A stretch of DNA of 63,868 bases, filler included, from Malassezia furfur (taxonomy: Eukaryota), in NCBI GenBank assembly GCA_052055015.1. It is 3 parts of 3 records of this genome, joined end to end, with 100 filler letters (N's around TTAATTAATTAA, not from the genome) between each part and the next. Parts side by side here need not be neighbours in the genome. Positions count along the whole stretch, not along the records: positions 1 to 23,895 come from JBQJIT010000146.1; 2 more parts are not named here. One strand, given 5' to 3'. Below, in pieces: positions 18,758 through 47,914 of this stretch. Made by a program: the position numbers and the translations under genes. The notes under the pieces were generated by a model, which was not told the DNA's origin, did not search any database, and was given only the letters and a program-made list of their open reading frames with translations. How positions within the stretch are numbered: the stretch's first letter is position 1; each line of letters opens with the position of its first letter.

Positions 18758-19862
18758 ATGGCGGACAAACAGGCGAAGCGTGCGCGCTTTGAGGGCGTGT
18801 TTAGCGACATTGTGGATGAGCTGCTTGGATATATGAAGTCGCAGTCCAGTGTGTATACATTTGTGTGCTGACCCAGTGCCGGACGATGCGATCCAGTGGT
18901 TCAAGCGCAACCTGGACTACAACACCCCAGGCGGTAAGCTGAACCGTGGGCTGTCGGTCGTCGATACGGTCGACCTGCTCCTGTGCACGGATGCGGAGGG
19001 CAAGCGCACGCGCGAGCTCAGTGACGAGGAGTACAAGGAGGCGGCCATTCTTGGCTGGTGCATCGAGCTGCTCCAGGCCTACTTCCTGGTCGCCGACGAC
19101 ATGATGGACGCGTCGATCACGCGCCGCGGCCACCCGTGCTGGTACCGTGTGGAAGGTGTTGGCAACATTGCGATCAACGACGCCTTCATGCTCGAGGGTG
19201 CTATCTACTACCTGCTCAAGCAGCACTTCCGCACGAAGCCGTACTATGTGCACCTGCTTGAGCTGTTCCACGACGTGACGTTCCAGACGGAGCTGGGTCA
19301 GCTGATTGACCTGATCACGGCGCCTGAGGACGTTGTGGACCTGTCCAAGTTCTCGCTGGACAAGCACCACCTGATCGTCGTGTACAAGACGGCGTTCTAC
19401 TCGTTCTACCTCCCTGTCGCGCTTGCGATGCGCATGTGCGGTGTGGATGACGAGTCACTGTACAAGCATGCGCTTGACATCCTCCTGCCTCTCGGCGAGT
19501 ACTTCCAGGTGCAGGACGACTACCTCGACTGCTACGGCACGCCCGAGGTGATTGGCAAGATCGGCACCGACATTCTTGATAATAAGTGCTCGTGGAACAT
19601 CAACGTTGCCCTTGCCAATGCGACGCCCGAGCAGCGCAAGACTCTGGACGACAACTACGGCCGCAAGGACTCGACGTGCGAGCAGCGGGTCAAGGACGTG
19701 TTCAATGCGCCCAACATCGACCTCAAGAAGCGGTTCGCTGACTACGAGCGCGACTCGTACGACCGTATTCATAAGCTGATCGATGCGCTGCCCGAGAGCT
19801 CGGGCCTGAAGCGCTCCGTGTTTGTGGCCTTCTTCGAGAAGGTGTACAAGCGCAGCAAGTAG
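18758..19862 (+). CDS. ERG20: Farnesyl diphosphate synthase
   Basis: [66 protein letters not shown]. 28-nt intron 18849-18876. Confidence 0.96.
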
Positions 19863-19927
19863 CCACATTCATTCTTAGTCAGCGCAATTTCGCCGTGCGC
19901 GTTCCACTTTTTTTTTGGTGCACGATC

Positions 19928-20974
19928 ATGGGCCTGGCCGAGCAGCGCAAAAAGCAGCGGCTCGTGGGATCGGCGACCACACGCAACCATGCCTGGGTCA
20001 ACGACACCTCGCTGCCTGGCCAGCGTCTGATGGCGTCTATGGGCTGGGCACCGGGCACCGGTCTGGGCACTTCGGGCCAGGGCATGGCGACGAACCTGAC
20101 TGTGTCCATGAAGCTCGACAACAAGGGAATTGGCGCGCACCGCCACGAAAAGGAGGCGCGCGAACAGAACAAGGCGGATGCATGGATTGGCGCCGGAGGC
20201 GACCTCGGTATGCTGTTTGAGCGTCTGAACTCGGCCAACTCGTCCGAGCAAGCGTCGCCTGCGAGCCCCGCAAGCCCTGCGCCAGTCGCTGCAGCGGCAG
20301 CACCGGCGCCTGTGCCGGCTGTTTCGCGACTTGCGTATGTTGCTCTATACTGACACAGTCACCGTGCCAAGTTCCGCCGCGCGAAGGCTATGGTCGGTAC
20401 CGATGCGTCGCGCATGAACGAGATTCTGGGAATTAGCAGCGCAGAGAGCAGCGCTCGGAATTCGCCGGCGCCTGCACTCGAGTCGCGCGCCTCGCCTGCG
20501 ACCAGCGCAGCAAAGCCCGCGAAGCGCAGTCGCGAGGAGAGCGAGGAGGATACGTCAGAGTCGCCCGAGCCGTCTGCGACGAAGAAGAGCAAGAAGAAGG
20601 ACAAGAAGGCATCGGGCGATTCTACGAAAGCGGAGCGCAAGCTGCAAAAGGCGCTAGAGAAAGAGGAGCGCAAGCGCGAGAAGCGCGAGAAGAAGGCAGC
20701 GAAGAAGGCGGATGCAGCGCGGGGTGTCGAGTCCTCCGAGAAACGCACCAAGGACAAGTCGAAGAAGTCGAAGAAGAGCCGTGCCAGCCATGACGATGAG
20801 TCGGAGCCGGCAGCCGCTGACCCGCCCGAGGCACCGACCGATACGCTCGTGGAAGAGTCCAACCTCATCGTGTCGCCCGGAGGCCAGTTTGTCTTCCAGT
20901 ACCTGTCCAACAAACTCATGCGCCGGCGTGCGGAGGTGCAGCTGCGCCGGCGTGAGGCGGGCAAGTGGTGGTAA
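19928..20974 (+). CDS. PXR1: G-patch protein Pxr1/PinX1 (ribosome biogenesis)
   Basis: MGLAE.RKKQR..RN..W.ND...G.RLM..MGW.PG.GLG..K.DNKGIG, HRAKF..AK, KKE-rich tail. 24-nt intron 20335-20358. Confidence 0.85.
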
Positions 20975-21152
20975 CTTGTAGTAGTACTGTATTTGTATGA
21001 AGAGGGAGAGGTCGTCCCACACGGCTACGATGGCACACGAGTGTGGTTCTAGGGGATCAAGTTGTGGCAGATCCTGAGACACTGTGCCGCACAGTGCGCC
21101 CATGGCCGGCAGGTGCGTCGCACGGGCGGGCGGGCCGGCTCTGATCGGCAGA

Positions 21153-21332
21153 TCACTGCACCTTTGCGGGGTCGGACGGGGGGACGCTCGCCTCGAGCGT
21201 TTTCTTGAGCTTCATATCGTCCTGCATAGACACCATAGATGTCTCGATGAGCGGCTTGAAAATGTACACGCCCGACGCGACGCCGACGAGTGCCGCAATG
21301 AGTGGGCCACCGAGGCTCTGGAAGCGCGACAT
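21153..21332 (-). CDS. 59-aa PIGBOS1-like single-TM micropeptide (below the ORF-track cutoff)
   Basis: MSRFQSLGGPLIAALVGVASGVYIFKPLIETSMVSMQDDMKLKKTLEASVPPSDPAKVQ*. The G..SGVYIF.P motif resembles PIGBOS1 (GIAGGVYIFQP). Head-to-head with SCS3. Confidence 0.75.
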   Translation of the reverse strand: MSRFQSLGGPLIAALVGVASGVYIFKPLIETSMVSMQDDMKLKKTLEASVPPSDPAKVQ

Positions 21333-21387
21333 GGCTGCGGAAAATTATTTGCGCTCCACCTCGCACGGTCTTCCCGCCGTTTTGTCG

Positions 21388-22433
21388 ATGAGCGCACCGG
21401 TGGCTGCGTACCGTCGTTTGCGGCGCCAGCTGCGCCCGCACCAGTACAACCTGGTCTTTTTCCTGTGGATTGGCCTGGTGATGCTGGGCGGCACGCTGTA
21501 CTCGATGTACTACGAGACGCATCTGTTTAATACGGAGTACTCGGCGACCCGCGCGCTGGACTATGCCGCGGCCAAGGCGATGCACGCCGACGTTCCGTCG
21601 GTGTTTGCAGACCGCCGGAACTGGGTGAACTCGCTGTTTGTGAAGCGCGCCTGGTTCTGGAACACGCTCGTGGTCCTGCTGGTCGCTGTGACGCTCGACC
21701 CCGCGTCGGGCGGCGTGCGTGGTGAAAAAGCGCGCGGCGTCGTGTTCCGTGGACCGCAGACCTGGCGCGAGGTGTTGGGCCTGAAGCCGCTTGTGCGCTG
21801 GGTGGAAGCGACGATTGGATGGGGTACGTGGCGCGACTAACTCAGTGTACGTGACGACGACTGACTCGCAGACTGGTGACGCAGTGGTGCTTTGGCCCCA
21901 GCATCATCGACCGCATCATGACGCACACGGGCGGGCAGTGCATGATCAACTCGGTGGCCGTGAGCCCGTCGCTGTGCTACTCGCGCACGTCGCTGACCGG
22001 CGTGTCGAACCCTGGTCTGTTTGCGCAGCTCCCCGTGGCCGTCCAAGAAATGGGCCTGACGCATCCGCTGTACGCCGGCTGGCACGGGGGCCACGACGTC
22101 AGTGGGCACACGTTTATCCTGGTGCTCGGCATGCTCCTGCTGAACGAGACGCTGATCCCGTTCATGCCGTACGTGCTGCCCCCCTTCTCGCGCTTCCGCG
22201 AGTCGATTCCGCATGCACTGTACGCGAGCAACGACGTGTTCCGCGTCCCGTCGAAGCGCGCGCGCATCGTCAACATTGCCGTGATGGCGGTAGCGCTGCT
22301 GGTATTGACGCTGTGGAGCTCGATGCTGTTCCTCACCTCCATCTACTTCCACCACCCCGGCGAGAAACTCACCGGTTTTCTGGCTGCCGCAGCCGTGTGG
22401 GTGCTGATGCCGAAACAGTCGGTCCTGTATTGA
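21388..22433 (+). CDS. SCS3: FIT-family acyl-CoA diphosphatase Scs3/FIT2
   Basis: FADRRNWVNSLFVKRAWFW, TQWCFGP, GHDVSGHTFIL, TSIYFHHPGEK. Frame requires introns 21824-21845 and 21847-21871 flanking a 1-nt exon. Confidence 0.88.
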
Positions 22434-23505
22434 GGCTGCTGCCCTGGCGCCATTCGAGCCGGAGCATCTCGAGCGCGTCGCTCGGATCGACCCACGACCC
22501 GACGTCGTCGCCGAGCGCCGCGCGCGAATATTCTCCCTGCGCATTGAACACAAGATCCCGTAGTGCTTCCCATTCCTCGACAAACGTGGGCGTGAGGCGC
22601 GCCGGCGCCAGCGCGAGCGTGCGGGGGGGCGAGCTGTGGTCGCGTGCGCCCTCGAGCGCAGACACGACCAGGGCGGCTCGCTCCGACGCCGCGCGGTAGG
22701 TGAGGTGCGCGATGCAGCTCGCGGGCTGGTCCAGCATGAGACGCTCGAGATGCTCCTCGATAGACAGCTCGTCATCGTCGAGCGCGAGCAGCTTGCGCAG
22801 CACCCAGATGTCGCGGGAGGTATCGCCGTAGTCCTTCGGCGAGGTATACTGCAGGGTGTGCAGCGCCGGCAGCCGGCGGATCGCCTCGGCCTCGGTGACG
22901 GACAGGTTGATATCGCACACGGTGAGCGACTCGACCTTGCGGAAGATGGGCGCATCAAAGCCGCAAATAAAGCTGTGGGGGTTTACGCTCGTGAGCCGCA
23001 CAGGCTGACACGCCGTGCCGTACGAATGCACGATCGCCTTGGACACGAGCGAGCCGCTCAGCGCCACATCTTGCAGACGGCGGCACGCACGCAGCACCAG
23101 CCGCGTGTTGGCGTACACCTCCTCGCGCAGCTGGTCCAGGTACGCCGAATCGCCCGGCAGCGGCACCGACAGGATCGACAGCAGGTCGGAGCGCGCGGTG
23201 CGCGGCCCGATCCACAGGGCGCGCACGGTGCGCGCGACATCGGGGTGCGCACGCACGAGCTGCGCAAAGCTCGCGAGCGCCGACGAGGTATACAGCTCGA
23301 CGCGGGTATAGATGATCGGGTGCAGTGCCTTGCGGATGCCCGAGTTGAGTGCGAGCAGGCGCGCGGCCATGCCCTGGTCCAGGAGAAAGGTTTCGTGCAG
23401 GACGCCCATGAGCACCTCGAACGGCAGCGGCGTGCGCTGCAGCGCCGCCGGTGCCGCCTCAGGCGCCGCCTCGGGCGTCTTACGCGGCCTGCTGCGCCGT
23501 TTCAT
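22369..23505 (-). CDS. Hypothetical protein, F-box-like N-terminus with LRR-like repeats
   Basis: 378-aa ORF with coding-type codon usage. LPFEVL..V..(x)..L..L....R..LHPIIY..VEL pattern of basidiomycete F-box-like proteins. 3' end overlaps SCS3. Confidence 0.6.
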   Translation of the reverse strand: MKRRSRPRKTPEAAPEAAPAALQRTPLPFEVLMGVLHETFLLDQGMAARLLALNSGIRKALHPIIYTRVELYTSSALASFAQLVRAHPDVARTVRALWIGPRTARSDLLSILSVPLPGDSAYLDQLREEVYANTRLVLRACRRLQDVALSGSLVSKAIVHSYGTACQPVRLTSVNPHSFICGFDAPIFRKVESLTVCDINLSVTEAEAIRRLPALHTLQYTSPKDYGDTSRDIWVLRKLLALDDDELSIEEHLERLMLDQPASCIAHLTYRAASERAALVVSALEGARDHSSPPRTLALAPARLTPTFVEEWEALRDLVFNAQGEYSRAALGDDVGSWVDPSDALEMLRLEWRQGSSLNTGPTVSASAPTRLRQPENR

Positions 23506-23562
23506 GGACCGTGCGTGGAGGGAACGTCGGGGCTACGTCTATCGGGGATCGATCGGGCCGCA

Positions 23563-23895
23563 TCAGAACGGGCGGAGCGGCTTGGTGTGCGTAAAGTTGA
23601 GGCCCCAGCGCGGCGAGGTCTGCGAGTCGCTGTGCCGCGAGAAAAACTGGCGCGCCTTGGCCATCGGCGCCGACTTTCCCTTGGGGCGCGCAGGCTCGGG
23701 CGCATCCGCGGTCGGCTGCCGCGCGTCCTGCAGCACCGTCGAGGGACGGGGCAGTGGCGGCGACGTCTTGGGTGTCGTCGACGCCGGTGCCTGAGGCGTC
23801 GGCGCACGCGGAGCGGCAGTCTGCGCAGGCGCAGGCGCGGTCGTGGGTGCGGGCTTGCGCGACGTGCGTGCGTCGGCGCCCGCGGGCGGTCGCGG
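23563..23895 (-). CDS. C-terminal fragment of a Pro/Ala/Thr-rich protein truncated by the contig gap
   Basis: Open frame from the gap to TGA at 23563-23565 (..KGKSAPMAKARQFFSRHSDSQTSPRWGLNFTHTKPLRPF*). Confidence 0.5.
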   Translation of the reverse strand, partial: PRPPAGADARTSRKPAPTTAPAPAQTAAPRAPTPQAPASTTPKTSPPLPRPSTVLQDARQPTADAPEPARPKGKSAPMAKARQFFSRHSDSQTSPRWGLNFTHTKPLRPF

Positions 23896-23995
23896 NNNNN
23901 NNNNNNNNNNNNNNNNNNNNNNNNNNNNNNNNNNNNNNNTTAATTAATTAANNNNNNNNNNNNNNNNNNNNNNNNNNNNNNNNNNNNNNNNNNNN
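23896..23995. other. Artificial scaffold linker / assembly gap
   Basis: N44-TTAATTAATTAA-N44, with stop codons in all six frames. Confidence 0.98.
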
Positions 23996-24265
23996 GCTGA
24001 GTCAGCGGGCGCGGGCCATCGGCCGACACGCGTGGTGCTGCGGAGCTGGCCGCGCCGGCCGCCGCGTGGCGCCGCGAGCGAAGCGCGGCCCCATACCGCT
24101 CGATTCGTCCTTCGTCGATCGACGTTCCGCATTGCGCGTTGGTTGCGTCTGGGAGTGACAGTGGCACAGACCCTGCGCGTTCTCGCCTACCCACCCTCTC
24201 GCCCTATCTTCTGCCGCGTGCGCCCTGAGCGCGCCTGCTCCGCACGAGGCAGCTAGCTGCCGACC

Positions 24266-27200
24266 ATGGATTTGTACCTCACCACCTTCACCTTACCCAA
24301 AACACGCGCGTTGTCCGTGCGCGGCGACGCCGCGCCGACGTCCGAGACGCGTGCATCTGCGGGTACCGCTGCGCTATCGTCGTCGCCGGACGCGCGTCTC
24401 GCGGGGCGCTCGGCGGGCCTCGCCGTGTCTCCACCGACCGCGCTGGCGCCCGGCTCGATGCGCCCCAGCCCCGCAGCACGCTCGCCCGACGCGGGTACGC
24501 GCGGCTCGCGCTCGCTTGCGAGCCTTGCCGAGAGCCATGCGCCACGGCCCGATACGCTCTTCACCGACGCCGTGCCCCGCGTCACGCAAAAGACCATGAA
24601 CGCGCACCACTGCCTCGTCACCGCGACGCCCTCGACGGACACCGCAGCAGAGGCGAACGGGAGCACCGCGGCCGCATACAATGGTGCGTCACGCAGCCCG
24701 CTCTCGCCTTCCGCACCCGCGCGCGCCTCGTCGCGCTCCGCCTCAACCGGCACCGCGCCGAGCGACGCGCTGCCGACGCCGTGTTCGCCGCGGTACAGCT
24801 TCCACGTGTGTGGCACGCAGGTGCAGGCGCAGGGCGCGCGTGGCCAGCTGCTTCAGGAGCTGCCGTTTGCGTGGCGCATCGCGTTTGCGGTGCCGCTCGC
24901 CGAGGTGTGGGACGTGCGCGAAGGCGGCGTGCGTGCAGACCTTGCGCCGAAGCTCGACGAGCTGCAGCAGCGTGCCGAGACGCGCATCACGATCGCACCA
25001 CGCGACGCGCCGCCGAGCGACGCGGGCGCACTCGAGGTCGACCGCCAGGCGCTTGTGACGATCAGCGGCACGCTCGAGGCGGTAGAGTATGCACGGGTGC
25101 AGGTGCTCGTGCTTCTTGACGAGCGGCACGGGCTGCACACGGAGCAGGCCGAGATCGAGTGCAAGCTGCACCACGTGAGCAGCGGGCGCAAGCGTGCGCT
25201 GCTGCAGCTCATCGAGGAGGAGACACAGACGAGCGTGTACCTCTCGTCGCCGTTTGCCGGCGTGCTGAGCACGGCGGTGCCTGCGGCGGTGGTGCAGCGG
25301 CGCAACACGGTGTACATCACCGGCCGTTTTTACAACACGCAGCGCGCGCGCGACATGATCGTGCAGCTCACGCAGACCAAGGCCAAGTCACTCGTGTCCA
25401 AGACGGTAACGCTGATGCCGCGCAAGGTCGACTACCTGCTGCAGGAGCGGCTCGAGGCGCTGCGCCAGCTCATGCTCGACAACGGCACCTTCCTCGAGCT
25501 GCCCGTGATCGGCAGCCAGCAGGGCAACGTCGCGGTGTGCGGCACGAGCCGCGTCGATGTCGAGCGCAGCATCCGCACGCTGATGCAGCTTGTCTCGCCG
25601 TACTACACTGCGCACGTGTGGCTGCTGCCTGGCGCGTACGACGCACTGGGTTTGTCGAGCAAGCCGGACTCGCGTGCGCTCACGTCGATCGTCACGGCGA
25701 TCAGCGCGAGCACCGGTGCCGAGGCCGGCTTCCAGAACAACCACTTTGAGATTGCCGGGCTCGACCGCGAGGTGCGTGCGGCACTGCGGCAGCTGCTTGC
25801 GGTGCCGTCGCTGAAGCACTACACGTACGAGTTCCGCTTCCAGCTCGAGCTGGCCACCGACCACCGCGAGTTCATCAGCGGGAAAAAGAACGGCAAAATC
25901 AACAAGATCATGGAGCACTGCGGCGTGCGAATCCGCTTTGAGCCATTCAACGAGTACAACTTCTTGATCGACGTGCTCGGCACGGAGCTGGACGCGGCGC
26001 TGCAGGGCCTCGGCCTGCTGCAGGAGGAGCTGCCCGCCGAGATGTCCTTCCACGTCCCCGAGGCGTACCACAAGCGCATCATTGGCGTCGGCGGCAAGAA
26101 CATCCAGCGCATCATGAAGAAGTACGGCGTGTACGTCAAGTTCTCCAATGCAGAAGAGTTCGCGGCGCTCGGCGGCTACATGGACAACGACGACAACGTC
26201 ATTGCGCGCACGCCGTCCAAGAACGCCGCGAACCTCGAGAACCTGAAGAACTCGGTGATGGAGCTCGTGAGCCCCAAGGACAAGGACTTTGTCACCGAGT
26301 CGATCGCCGTCCCGCGCAAGTACCAACGCATCCTGCTCGGCGAAAAGGCCGGCACGATCCACGACATCGAGCGCAAGACGCGCTGCGTCGTGCGTTTTGC
26401 GCGCCGCGAGTCGGCGCTCGACGCGGTCCACGTGTTTGGGCCCGAGGCGCAGATCGCGCTCGCGGTGCAGATGCTGCTCCAGCACGTCCCGCTCGAGGCG
26501 GACCTCGTGCTGCCGCCCAGCCCCGAGACCAACCAGCTGCTCGACTCGCCAGAACTTGTGCGGCTGCAGGAGCGCCTCCACAAGGAACTCGGCCTCTCGC
26601 TCCACCCCTGGCCGCGTGCGCCCAGCGGCGAGGGGGCACGCGGCCTGACGCTGTGCGTGCCGCGCGCCAACCTCGAGGTGCTGCCCACGGCCAAGGGGTG
26701 GCTCGACGAGCTCTGCGCGTCGTTCCACGTGCACACCGCTGCGCCGCCGCGCGCCTCGGACGCATACGCGGCGCCCGGCGCCATGTCGCCGTTTTCGTCG
26801 TCGCTCCCGTCGTCGTCGCCTTCGCTGGCCGCCACGGTCCACTCCGATACCTTTTCCCATGATACCGCTGCGGCGCATGCCGCATCCGTGGCAGCGGTCG
26901 GCACGCGCTTCGACGACACATCACCCGTGCCGAGCGCCGCGCCCGGCGCGCCGTCCTCGGCGCCGTCCAAGGACCTCAAGGCGCTGTTTGAGCAGCCGAG
27001 TGCACCGGGCAGCCTGGCTTCCAATACCCCCCTGATGCCCTCCTTTTATACCCCGGGCTACACGGAAAACGCCAGCTTCTCGCACCCGGTCTGGGGCATG
27101 CCGCTGCCGTCGATGGCAGACATGGGCACATCCAAGCCCGGTGCACCCGGCTCGGGCAGTACACACATGCCCGGCGCCAGTCCGGGTGCCGCAGGCAACG

Positions 27201-30111: not shown

Positions 30112-32055
30112 ATGAGCGGGCGTGGACGAGGCGCCTACTACAAGCAAAAGTATGGACGCGGTGGGAACCGCGGCGCAGGACGAAGCGACCACAATGCGCC
30201 GCAATCTGGCCCAGAGCTGAAGCGTTCGCGGACGGCGGTGCTGGGCGATGCGTCTGACCTCGAGGCATGGCTCCGGCGGCACGACAACCGGCCATACCCG
30301 GCATACCACGACATCGAAGGGACGTGGACATTTCCGGGCTTTACGTTTACGCTGGATCACGCGCAGGCCGACCCGTATGCATCACCCAGTAAGGCGCATG
30401 TGCGCATCCCCCATGCGACGGCAAAATTTCCGCCGGTGCTGTACGCCTCGCGCATCCACAAAATTGCCCTAGCAGATTATGTGCTGCGTGCGCTGTACGA
30501 GATGTGTGTCTCAAAGCGCTACGACCAGCGCCTGTCGGGTGGCGGCTGGTCGGGCGGCAAAGGCGGCCAGCTCGAGGTGGACCGCCCCGGGCAACAGGTA
30601 CTCGAGCGCACCGCCGTGCTAGTCGATGACGAGGGGATTGAGGTGCGCTTCCTTGTCGGTCTTCCGGCGCGTGGACGCAGCATTATGGGCGCCTTTGCGG
30701 CGGCTGTATGTACGTATCGAGTATCCTGACGCAGTGTGTGAGCACGTCCCTGCGCTGGTCGCGTCGGTGTACTATGCGCACCATGACGCGGCGCACCTGT
30801 CGGCACATGTCGAAGCGGTCGAGGACCAAGATGCGCTGCGCGCTATGCTGCCTGAGCACGGGCTCGTAGGCTTTGTTCCCGACGGTGCAGTGCTGGCGCG
30901 CGAGAGTGGCGCATCGGATCGCCCGATGTCGAGCCCACCGGCGGTGCGCTTCGAGAGCCCCGAGTCGCTGCGCGTCACGCTTAAGCTGCCGAACCGCGGC
31001 GCGATTTCCGGGATGGGGATCCGGAAGCAGGCTGTGTATGTGTGTCTGGGCGGTGGTTTCCACGGCAAGTCGACGTTCCTCGCGGCGCTCGCGCGCGGTG
31101 CATACAACCATGTCCCCGAAGACGGGCGTGCGTTTGTGAGTTTGGTCCCGTCGGCGGTGAGTGTGCGGTCTGAGGACGGGCGCCCAGTGCGTTCGGTGGA
31201 CATTTCGCCGTTCATTGCGGACCTGCCCGATGGGAGCGAGACAAGGTGCGTCGCGTGCTAACCGCCAGTGCGTTTACGACGAGCAATGCGTCTGGAAGCA
31301 CGTCTTGTGCCGCCGGGTTCATGGAGGCGCTCGAGCTCGGCACGGACGTGGTGATTCTGGACGAGGACACGACCGCGTCCAACTTTCTGGTGCGCGACGC
31401 TGCGATGCAGACGCTTGTGCCGAACGAGCCGATCACGCCACTTGCGGTGCGCGCGCGCGACGTGGTGGAGCATACGGGTGTGACGATGGTGCTGGTGTGT
31501 GGCTCGTCGAGCGCGTTTTTGTCGGCTGCGGACGTGGTGGTACAAATGGATGCATACCGCATGTACGACGTCACAGCGCGCGCCCGTGAGGTCGCGCAGG
31601 GCGTAGCGGCGAATGCGCCGCCGCGCGGTGCGTCGGTGTTTAGCGGAGCGCGTGCGGCGCGTGCCGTGGAGCTTGGGTCGCTCGCGGCGCACGGCAAGGT
31701 GGCGACGCGCGGTGCGTTCCAGGTGCAGTGGGGCGACGAGACGCTCGACCTGCATGCCGTGCCGCAGCTGGTCACGCCGAGCCAGACGCGGGCGATCGAG
31801 GCGGTGCTGCGGCACTGGGCGCACGGGCAGCTCGCGCCGGGCGGTGGGCGTGTTTCGCTGCGTGCGCTGGTGGACGCGCTCGAGGCGCACATGGACAGGT
31901 TTGGGGTGGATGTGCTACAAGATTATGGGCGCCTGGATGGGTTCCTCGCGCGTCCACGGCGCGTGGATGTGGGCGCAGCGGGTATGTACACGCAACTCAC
32001 GCCAGTGAATCGTCTTCGGCAGGCGAAGTGGGCGCAGCTCGGCGCCGACGCATAG
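30112..32055 (+). CDS. ABC-class ATPase of the COG3044/PF09818 type (MRB1590-like)
   Basis: Y.AY.DIEG, QADPYASPS, QVLERTAV, LPARGRSI, GAVLARESGASDRPM, Walker A GGGFHGKST, RSEDGR, ASGSTS, ILDEDTTASNF, AA.NRLR. Introns 30710-30734, 31246-31268, 31982-32005. Confidence 0.85.
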
Positions 32056-37456: not shown

Positions 37457-38903
37457 CTAGGCAGATGCATTTTCTTCCCATGCAATTGCGGCAAAACTCA
37501 GCTGCCGTCAGGTTAGGCCCACGTACCAGCACCAGCAGGCCGCCAACCACGTTTTGCAGGTGCAGCGACGATGGGTCGTTCGCCATGCCGCCCAGCGCCG
37601 CCATGGGGATCGTGAGCGAGAGACCGATCGTGGTAAAGAGCGGCGACGACTTGAGCATCGCAAGCAAGTAGGCAAAGTCGCTGCATCAGCATTCCGCACA
37701 CACCTCACGACGGTGATCGCCATGTTGACCACCACGCCGAGCCACATGTTCGCGTCCGACGGCAGCGCCAGCGGCTCGATGCCGAGCCAGTCCAGCACGA
37801 GGCCCACCGGCCAGAACGCCACGAGATTGAACAGGCCCACGAACCCGAAAAAGAGCGGCATGGAGATCCGGTCCTCGGACCCGATGCGCACCTTGAGCAG
37901 CGTCACGTACACTGCGTAGCCTGCACACGTCAGCCACGCCAAGTACGTACACAGCGCCGACAGAATCGCCAGCATGTCGCCCAGAAGGGGGTTCGATGCA
38001 TCGCCTGCCGATACGGACGACGTGCCATGGTCGGACCACGTCACGAGCGCGACGCCCAGGAAACTGAGCACCACCGACACCACTTTGCCCGGCGCAAACG
38101 TGTCGGTACCCACCATGCTGCCGAGCAGCAGCGTAAAGAAACCACTCGATGCACCGAGCGTCGTGCCGCTCGCGACACTCGTGTAGCCCAGCGCGGCCAC
38201 GAACGACCAGTTGGCCGCAAACCAGACAATCGCGAACTGCATCGCCAGGATGCCCGTCTCGACGATCGACAGCGGCGGAAGATCCGACGCAGGGACCACA
38301 CACACACTGTGCTCCGACACCCCTGCGTCATCGTCCGAGCCATACGTCGACGACGCCGACTCGGCCATGAGCTCCTCACTCTCCTCGAGCCCACGCACCG
38401 TGAAGCTGCGCCCCCGCGACAGCCCCCGCCGCGCCGGCCGCTTGTGCGGCGCGGGACCAAGGTCAATGCGCATATTCAGGTTACTTCGTGGCCGCCGCCC
38501 ATCGATCGATGAGGGACGCGGCGGCGATGGCTCGATCCCCAGCGCGCCGCTCGGTGCTGCAGGTGCCGGCTCGTCGAGGTGCTCGGCCGCGGCGATGGCA
38601 GGGTCCACCGGGTACATCGGCGGCAGACGGAATCCGAGCCGCTCGTACCACGGCATCCGCGTGCCGTCCGTGGGGACGCGCAGGTCGGCGCCGTACATCC
38701 AAAGGCCCACGAACGGCACGAGGTAAGTGACGAACGATGCGGTGCTCAAATACGTCACAGCAAACGGCTTATTATAGCCGTGCGTGCTGCGTCAGTGGCG
38801 CCACGTACAGTACGGCGCTGGCCAAAAAGTTGGACGCGGTCCATAGCACATCAACTAGCAGCACCAGCCCCGCGCCGACCGCGTACCGATGCGCGTGCGC
38901 CAT
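37457..38903 (-). CDS. EamA/DMT transporter, Thi74/SLC35F5-like
   Basis: LWTASNF, YNKPF.VTYLST.SF, WFAANW...AL.YTSVAS.T.L..SSGFFTL, GD.LA..SA, FFGFVGLFN, SD..Y..AML.SSPL..T.GLSLTIP. Introns 38787-38808, 37921-37950, 37681-37703, 37502-37526. Confidence 0.85.
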
Positions 38904-40824: not shown

Positions 40825-41897
40825 CTATGGGTTTTTGCTCGCCTCGTCCTGTGCGGCCGCTGCCTGTCGTACCGGCGCAAAGTACGGGTGGTGCTGCGCC
40901 TCGAGCGCCGTAAGGCGTTCCTGGTGGTCGTAGCGCAGCAGATGATCCAAAAAGTCGAGCGCCTCGTCCGACACGTATCGCTCATTCTCGGGCGTGACAA
41001 AGCGGGGCCAAGGCTTGCGCTGGTACCGGCCCAGAATACCGTCGTAGTGCGAGTCAAGCTCAATGTTGTACTTTTCCAAGTAGGCAAATAGCCCATCGGT
41101 GCCCAGCACCTTGCAAATCTTGACGAGCTGGTCATAGTTGTCGTGGCCGTGGAAGAACGGCTCCTTGCGGAAGATCATGCTGGCAAACATGCAGCCGAGG
41201 CTCCACATGTCCAGAGAGTAGTCGTATTCCTGGAAATCCACCAGCAGCTCGGGGCCCTTGAAGTATCGCGAGGCGACGCGCACATTGTATTCGGTATACG
41301 GGTGGTAAAACTCCGCCAGACCCCAGTCAATCAGACGCAGCTTGCGCTTTTCGTGGTCAATCATGACGTTGTGGGGCTTGACATCACGATGCATGATACC
41401 ACGCGAATGGCAAAAGTCGAGCGCCTTGAGCAGCTCAAAGATGTAGTAGCGCACATCAAAGTCGGTGAAGCGGGGATACAGCACCTTGAAATCGGTGTTG
41501 TTCACATACTCCGTAATGATCGATGGCGTCTTCGACTGCGGGTCGCGCACCACATCAATCAGCTGCACAACGTTGGGGCCGCCGCGAAGGTTTTGCAGGA
41601 TTTTGATTTCGCGCTTGATCTTCTTCTTCTTGACCGGCTTGAGCACCTTGATGATGCACTTGTCGTAGCCAGGCGACGCCACATTGATCCCCTCGAATAC
41701 TTCGGAATACTTGCCGCGCCCCACCTTTTGCAGAATCTCGTAGTGGTCCTGCGTTCCCCTGGGGTTAGTCGGTCACCTACCATTGCAACTGGAGATTGTC
41801 TGCGTAAGAAAGAGCTGTACGTACCATAGTCCCACCATGACCGGCCGCGCTTTTCGTTCGCGTCCGCATACACCCGCGCCACGCTCAATCCGGACAT
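40825..41897 (-). CDS. CKA1: Casein kinase II catalytic alpha subunit
   Basis: [59 protein letters not shown]. Introns 41800-41824 and 41759-41780 flank a 19-nt exon. Confidence 0.96.
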
Positions 41898-47814: not shown

Positions 47815-47914
47815 NNNNNNNNNNNNNNNNNNNNNNNNNNNNNNNNNNNNNNNNNNNNTTAATTAATTAANNNNNNNNNNNNNNNNNNNNNNNNNNNNNN
47901 NNNNNNNNNNNNNN
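47815..47914. other. Artificial scaffold linker / assembly gap
   Basis: N44-TTAATTAATTAA-N44. Confidence 0.98.

Follow-up and report, generated by a model that had tools for sequence, protein, structure and literature searches.

How is the reading frame of the Malassezia furfur FIT/SCS3 gene kept open at a point where two blocks of conserved coding sequence are separated by what looks like two complete introns with a single base between them? The locus lies in a 63,868-nt stretch of M. furfur DNA (assembly GCA_052055015.1), all of which was analyzed here and which we call the window. (Four runs of 44 N's occur in the window, at 23896-23939, 23952-23995, 47815-47858 and 47871-47914, forming two pairs that are each split by 12 bases; they may represent masked or withheld sequence or gaps in scaffolds.) A sequence-only reading of this DNA had proposed that the base in question, T21846, is an exon of one nucleotide. 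The sequence that it gave for 21823-21872 (...GGA TGG G, 22 nt, T21846, 25 nt, A CTG GTG ACG CAG TGG) matches the window base for base, and its statement that both flanking units carry a canonical donor, branch point and acceptor was borne out. Intron 1 (21824-21845, + strand, 22 nt) has a GTACGT donor, ACTAAC at 21836-21841 with the branch A at 21840, and a CAG acceptor; intron 2 (21847-21871, + strand, 25 nt) has a GTACGT donor, ACTGAC at 21860-21865 with the branch A at 21864, and a CAG acceptor. T21846 (21846-21846, + strand) is therefore flanked on each side by a complete GT-AG intron with its own branch site. From the frame, the homology and the splice signals described below, we consider it fairly probable that T21846 is a one-base exon in the mRNA.

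The gene had been identified as FIT/SCS3, and matches to Pfam family PF10261 (FIT, fat storage-inducing transmembrane protein) uphold that assignment, both halves of the gene scoring above the curated cut-off. Exon 1 (21388-21823, + strand) begins with an ATG at 21388 and runs for 145 codons to ...ATIGW, and its final base, G21823, opens a split Val codon. It scored 37.3 bits against the profile (cut-off 21.4), with residues 70-145 aligned to profile positions 2-64. The last exon (21872-22433, + strand) scored 106.2 bits, its residues 1-178 aligning to profile positions 66-238 of 240; A21872 is the third base of the Val codon and is followed by 186 codons, starting with LVTQWCFGP at 21873, and a stop codon at 22431-22433. 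Because profile coverage jumps from position 64 to position 66, one residue is missing at the junction of exon 1 and the last exon. When the frame opened by the ATG at 21388 is read through unspliced, ...ATIGW ends at 21822 and a TAA follows within intron 1. The rest of the gene is intact, conserved His motifs included: the last exon contains the family motifs WHGGHDVSGH and YFH..EK in unbroken form, and columns W70, G72, G73, H74, D75, S77, G78, H79, F159, H160, E164 and K165 were invariant in all eight of the eight aligned sequences. We take the invariant His-motif residues of the FIT family to be catalytic.

Excision of both introns gave an open frame of 332 codons reading ...IGW-V-LVTQWCFGP across the site, with T21846 as the middle base of a GTA (Val) codon assembled from G21823, T21846 and A21872. 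The failures that the sequence-only reading had predicted for other splicing outcomes were all reproduced. Omission of the T, which is what a single 48-nt intron (21824-21871) would entail, leads to W-D-W-stop. Removing intron 1 alone shifts the frame, and removing intron 2 alone, or neither intron, leads to a stop at codon 150. A [D1,2] stwintron, in which 49 nt (21823-21871) would be removed, also gave an out-of-frame product, and by inspection its rebuilt donor, GTGTAC, is without a G at +5. Two other candidates were rejected: recursive splicing through a zero-length exon, since one base separates the AG from the GT and retaining none of it again yields W-D-W-stop, and use of an acceptor at 21870, which is non-AG and thus non-canonical.

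We enumerated every GT/GC...AG choice around the site. Within 21700-21960, 40 single-intron choices were in frame, of which 38 removed conserved residues on one flank or both, and the other two both started at 21828 with GTGGCG, a weak donor. LVTQWCFGP was retained by just one of them, 21828-21871 (44 nt), which would produce a protein of 333 residues reading ...IGW-G-T-LVTQW..., with one residue extra and no one-base exon. The claim that keeping T21846 is the sole solution consequently stands for consensus signals with family spacing and does not stand formally, as this in-frame 44-nt intron exists. We regard its use as very improbable, even though the resulting frame is open and both conserved flanks are retained. 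The GTGGCG donor is without G at +5 and T at +6 and begins 4 nt 3' of a perfect GTACGT; an internal ACTAAC..CAG and a second GTACGT would be left idle; and two residues would occupy a place where exactly one is found in Malassezia obtusa, Malassezia japonica, a metagenome locus (L002), the relatives P0011-P0013 and two ascomycetes. The corresponding enumeration of two-intron choices within 21790-21905 yielded 187 combinations, 36 of them in frame. The pair 21824-21845 and 21847-21871 was the only one that combined ATIGW, LVTQWCFGP, one residue between them and two consensus donors. With any middle base other than T, the codon would specify a residue less hydrophobic than those that relatives have at this place (V, F, L, I or M).

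Introns 1 and 2 are typical of this genome in length and branch-point spacing, as judged from intron statistics that cover the 64-kb window alone. We defined a strict mini-intron motif as GTRYGT, 3-14 nt, CTRAC, 1-8 nt and YAG, and found 22 matches on the two strands of the window, whereas 100 dinucleotide-shuffled versions contained 0.52 on average and at most 3. These candidates range from 21 to 31 nt in length, and looser candidates of 35-42 nt also occur. In intron 1 (22 nt), the distance from donor to branch A is 17 nt and that from branch A to the 3' end is 5 nt; in intron 2 (25 nt), the same distances are 18 and 7 nt; and the medians for 19 other candidates in the window are 24 nt for length, 18 nt from donor to branch A and 6 nt from branch A to the 3' end. 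Long open frames become joined when many of the remaining candidates are excised; in one case, frames of 14 and 17 codons become frames of 112 and 426 codons. In a curated Malassezia sympodialis annotation (PMC5389616, Table 2), introns average 30 bp, and RNA-seq supports 99% of them. The segment 21824-21871 is the only back-to-back pair of mini-introns (≤30 nt apart) in the window. At 30706-30734 (+ strand), we observed a different arrangement, in which overlapping donors GTATGT and GTACGT, 4 nt apart, have one branch site and acceptor in common; the alternative introns of 29 and 25 nt differ in frame, and of the two, it is the 25-nt intron alone that connects long open frames to either side.

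The exon side of the splice sites appears to contribute little to their recognition. Across the 22 introns of the window, neither the base preceding the donor nor the base following the acceptor is conserved, which fits recognition by intron definition, for which nothing would be needed from the exon. RNA folding at the site favored no structure (minimum free energy, -21 kcal/mol; z, +1.31; 184 of 200 shuffles folded at least as well), and a search of positions 19000-25000 for Rfam families returned no match.

The nearest named relatives of the encoded protein are those of M. obtusa (WFD03950.1) and M. japonica (WFD40982.1), which fits the earlier description of the host as a lipid-dependent yeast. 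Residues 1-145 encoded by exon 1 align without gaps to residues 1-145 of the M. obtusa (70% identity) and M. japonica (61% identity) proteins, and the last exon begins at residue 147 of both. At residue 146, which falls between these two alignments, M. japonica has Phe and M. obtusa has Val, the very residue obtained by keeping T21846. Two ascomycete homologues likewise have a single residue (I and M, respectively) between the W and LxTQW. The M. obtusa and M. japonica proteins both bear the name "ATP adenylyltransferase" in their records, despite belonging to the FIT family. The last ~15 residues of the M. obtusa protein (P0040) diverge from the ORF read-through of the same gene (P0003/P0041), which keeps YFH..EK; judging from these sequences, the 3' end of the WFD03950.1 annotation is probably wrong.

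The same codon is interrupted in both of these congeners. In M. obtusa, the read-through P0003 contains seven residues, GTCTTDA, before the Val that are additional to the annotated P0040, and the only GT-AG-compatible reading of them is a 21-nt phase-1 intron, G|GTAC...GCAG|TN. The M. japonica data show the same phase: the exon-1 ORF ends in CTLLY-stop, MCTDAV-FFSQW opens the downstream ORF, and W-F-FFSQW is the reading of the annotated protein. By degenerate back-translation, the ORF tails of three further relatives, P0010 (GA-stop), P0014 (CTC-stop) and P0015 (CE-stop), also fit a phase-1 donor. Intron 1 of M. furfur occupies the phase-1 site that is common to the single introns of M. obtusa and M. 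japonica. The three genes thus agree in gene, codon and donor position (directly 3' of the first base of the codon next to the conserved W), and in the tiny size and GTAC start of the intron; they differ in what follows, as the single intron of M. obtusa (21 nt) and M. japonica is succeeded by the two remaining codon bases, whereas in M. furfur one base is succeeded by a second full intron. Nothing in M. obtusa or M. japonica corresponds to intron 2 as an intron of its own. In four lineages, the site is intronless, as seen at the DNA level in L002 and from uninterrupted ORFs in P0011, P0012 and P0013. The sequence-only reading had suggested aligning orthologues for conservation of both introns, and among these relatives the pair is not conserved, M. 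obtusa and M. japonica having one intron and L002 and P0011-P0013 none. The two-intron state is therefore lineage specific and derived.

Other comparisons gave less information on the site itself. The closest relatives (96% and 87% identity; P0006, P0042 and P0048) are represented by ORFs that start at the GTG of LVTQW, 3' of the intron site. Our metagenome scan returned 80 loci, the best of which (L001 and L002) were just 42% identical and intronless at the site, and no relative was found in scans of genome contigs and viral contigs.

The single intron in M. obtusa and M. japonica also speaks in favor of the possibility that an indel in the assembly or the sequence conceals a single intron of ~48 nt, or that the locus is a recently broken allele or a pseudogene that gives no functional mRNA. 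Lengthening the GGGG run at 21821-21824 by one G would be enough to yield TGG GG|intron|A, that is, W-G-L, with the frame restored by one intron. None of the ten possible exon-1 ORFs of the window was present in the protein collection by exact look-up, so there is no second copy with which to compare this one. Even so, we consider an error or a broken allele unlikely. Neither would account for the presence of a full acceptor (ACTAAC..CAG) and a full GTACGT donor inside the supposed intron, when the strict motif is expected 0.52 times per window. The extra G would place the intron in phase 2, against the phase 1 that fits M. obtusa, M. japonica, P0010, P0014 and P0015. Decay of the allele is further at odds with the state of the two coding exons, of 145 and 186 codons, both of which are open, gapless or nearly so against relatives, and in possession of their conserved motifs.

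We therefore return to T21846 as a one-base exon and to how it might be spliced. We propose that this gene of the FIT2-type acyl-CoA diphosphatase family carries two independently spliced spliceosomal introns of 22 and 25 nt, such that the 3' splice site of intron 1 and the 5' splice site of intron 2 would lie one base apart and T21846 would stay in the mRNA. With the resulting G|T|A Val codon, the protein would have 332 residues and keep W-x-L-x-T-Q-W at the spacing of the family. Splicing would proceed by intron definition, and no signal carried by the exon should be needed, because each unit has GTACGT, ACTRAC and CAG at the spacing preferred in this genome. Either order of removal could work, since loss of intron 1 spares the donor of intron 2 and loss of intron 2 spares the acceptor of intron 1. 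Two points count against a one-base exon: an inner acceptor and donor only 1 nt apart must hinder each other's simultaneous recognition, and M. obtusa and M. japonica lack the two-intron arrangement. As the two inner sites are unlikely to be occupied at the same time, sequential splicing is expected, and we infer that two spliceosomes most likely act at the module in succession. The requirement for ordered splicing named in the sequence-only reading is plausible.

The predicted failure of the T-skipped mRNA had led the sequence-only reading to suggest an on/off switch for this lipid-droplet gene. Inclusion of the T would then be facultative, and in a regulated share of transcripts the donor at 21824 would be joined to the acceptor at 21871, with nonsense-mediated decay (NMD) acting as a valve on FIT2. 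The T-skipped product does stop two codons past the junction, and the looser candidates of 35-42 nt in the window make excision of 48 nt conceivable; skipping may compete with inclusion because 48 nt is not far beyond that range. The inner sites, in contrast, are perfect consensus sequences at the preferred spacing, which argues for constitutive use, and RNA structure favors neither route (z, +1.31). An old regulatory device can also be excluded, given that neither M. obtusa nor M. japonica has the pair. We treat an NMD switch at FIT2 as speculation, and as an improbable one.

If T21846 is a constitutive one-base exon, its module would seem to have developed from one phase-1 intron within this lineage. 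A second intron may have been inserted one base downstream, between the T and the A, in which case no compensation would be needed; alternatively, the first intron plus one base may have been duplicated in tandem, followed by a compensating loss of one base. In a ranking of the 231 pairs among the window's mini-introns by similarity, introns 1 and 2 came 13th. Since they are not unusually alike, a recent tandem duplication is not demonstrated. The top-ranked pair consisted of intron 1 and an unrelated 22-nt candidate at 38787-38808 (- strand), which are identical at 19 of 22 positions; this likeness may reflect a GC-rich filler that they have in common or a family of related introns. By analogy with an idea in the Discussion of Nelson & Syed (PMC12940212), in the available part of which a cryptic one-base exon is proposed to rescue the loss of one base, such a rescue is open as a further route of origin for the FIT module.

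One-nucleotide exons had been called very rare in the sequence-only reading, a description that needs qualifying, as they have been published in Arabidopsis, in Fusarium and in 13 genes of Coprinopsis cinerea. A close parallel comes from the Fusarium CYP621A P450 genes, for which the accessible portion of Nelson & Syed 2026 (PMC12940212) reports a one-base exon supported by SRA reads. As described there, that exon and the one proposed here both belong to fungal nuclear genes, in which a phase-1 boundary meets a phase-2 boundary in frame only through retention of a base that lies between two GT-AG introns; in both, this base is the middle of a codon within a conserved, length-constrained motif, and in both it was recognized by comparison with homologues free of the interruption. 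The same portion of that paper also sets the two apart: the intervening region in CYP621A is ~139 nt long and the exon is a G in the context AG|G|GT, whereas the FIT region spans 48 nt and the exon would be a T in CAG|T|GTACGT. The Fusarium exon is, moreover, kept in at least 20 orthologues and confirmed by SRA reads, whereas the FIT pair is not common to the named congeners and is deduced from DNA sequence.

Arabidopsis thaliana APC11 has a constitutive single-nucleotide exon according to the available text of Guo & Liu 2015 (PMC4674806). Going by that text, APC11 resembles the FIT gene in that one base lies between two spliceosomal introns and the frame depends on it, and the exon of APC11 had been missed by annotation; APC11, however, is a plant gene whose exon was shown with GFP fusions in Arabidopsis and rice, while the FIT exon is predicted and its flanking introns are near the minimum for the genome. 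In C. cinerea, a long-read annotation (PMC12230235) lists, in the part available, 13 genes with one 1-nt exon each. Here the host is, as in our case, a basidiomycete, and omission of the one-base internal exons breaks the gene model; the C. cinerea data, as given there, are genome-wide counts from long-read cDNA, in contrast to the single case predicted for FIT. Stwintrons, as portrayed in the accessible part of PMC8469720, are similar in that two U2-type units are packed into one intervening region and excised consecutively. They differ in that the internal intron is placed within a splice signal belonging to the external intron, with no base retained between the two, whereas the FIT units lie side by side.

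Three features distinguish the FIT module from these systems: its size of 48 nt, the identity of its exon base (T in place of G) and its congeners, in which the codon holds a single intron or is uninterrupted. None of our literature searches brought up a paper on Malassezia micro-exons or on how the FIT gene of this genus is built. On its sequence, the FIT one-base exon is a probable further case beside the published ones. A much stronger statement would be that it forms the most compact spliceosomal intron-exon-intron module described (22 + 1 + 25 = 48 nt), that a second, near-minimal intron was recently gained at a distance of one base from the intron already present within the M. furfur/obtusa/japonica group, and that NMD removes the T-skipped product, possibly tuning FIT2 dosage; we think it unlikely that this whole combination holds.

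Two other genes in the window touch on the setting of the FIT gene. A gene for a 63-residue PIGBOS1-like protein (PF23670; E value, 1.7e-9) lies at 21156-21344 on the - strand, divergent from FIT. Because the same small gene adjoins the FIT homologue in metagenome locus L002 (~400-500), the pairing of the two genes is conserved. The window also holds a casein kinase II alpha gene (E value, 4e-165 vs. solved CK2 alpha chains) in which, at 41759-41824 (- strand), a 19-nt coding micro-exon (41781-41799) lies between introns of 25 nt (41800-41824) and 22 nt (41759-41780). Read by eye, this micro-exon encodes D-NLQLQ-W, which presumably fits the spacing of the CK2 alpha N-terminus. With a 19-nt exon between introns of 25 and 22 nt, CK2 alpha indicates that even an essential gene can tolerate tiny introns in close packing.

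If the one-base exon of FIT is confirmed, a basidiomycete yeast with near-minimal introns would join the few organisms that splice such an exon, and pure intron definition would be sufficient even where two splice sites nearly touch. Should the reading of a recent gain also be true, intron gain would have been caught in the act, and a distance of one base between a 3' splice site and the 5' splice site that follows would not keep the spliceosome from using both, in obligate order. The occurrence of zero, one or two introns at one codon among congeners would make this site a tractable natural series for the study of intron gain. Standard gene finders and RNA-seq aligners would break the FIT gene, and inventories of lipid metabolism in Malassezia could for that reason misscore FIT2/SCS3 as absent or as a pseudogene.
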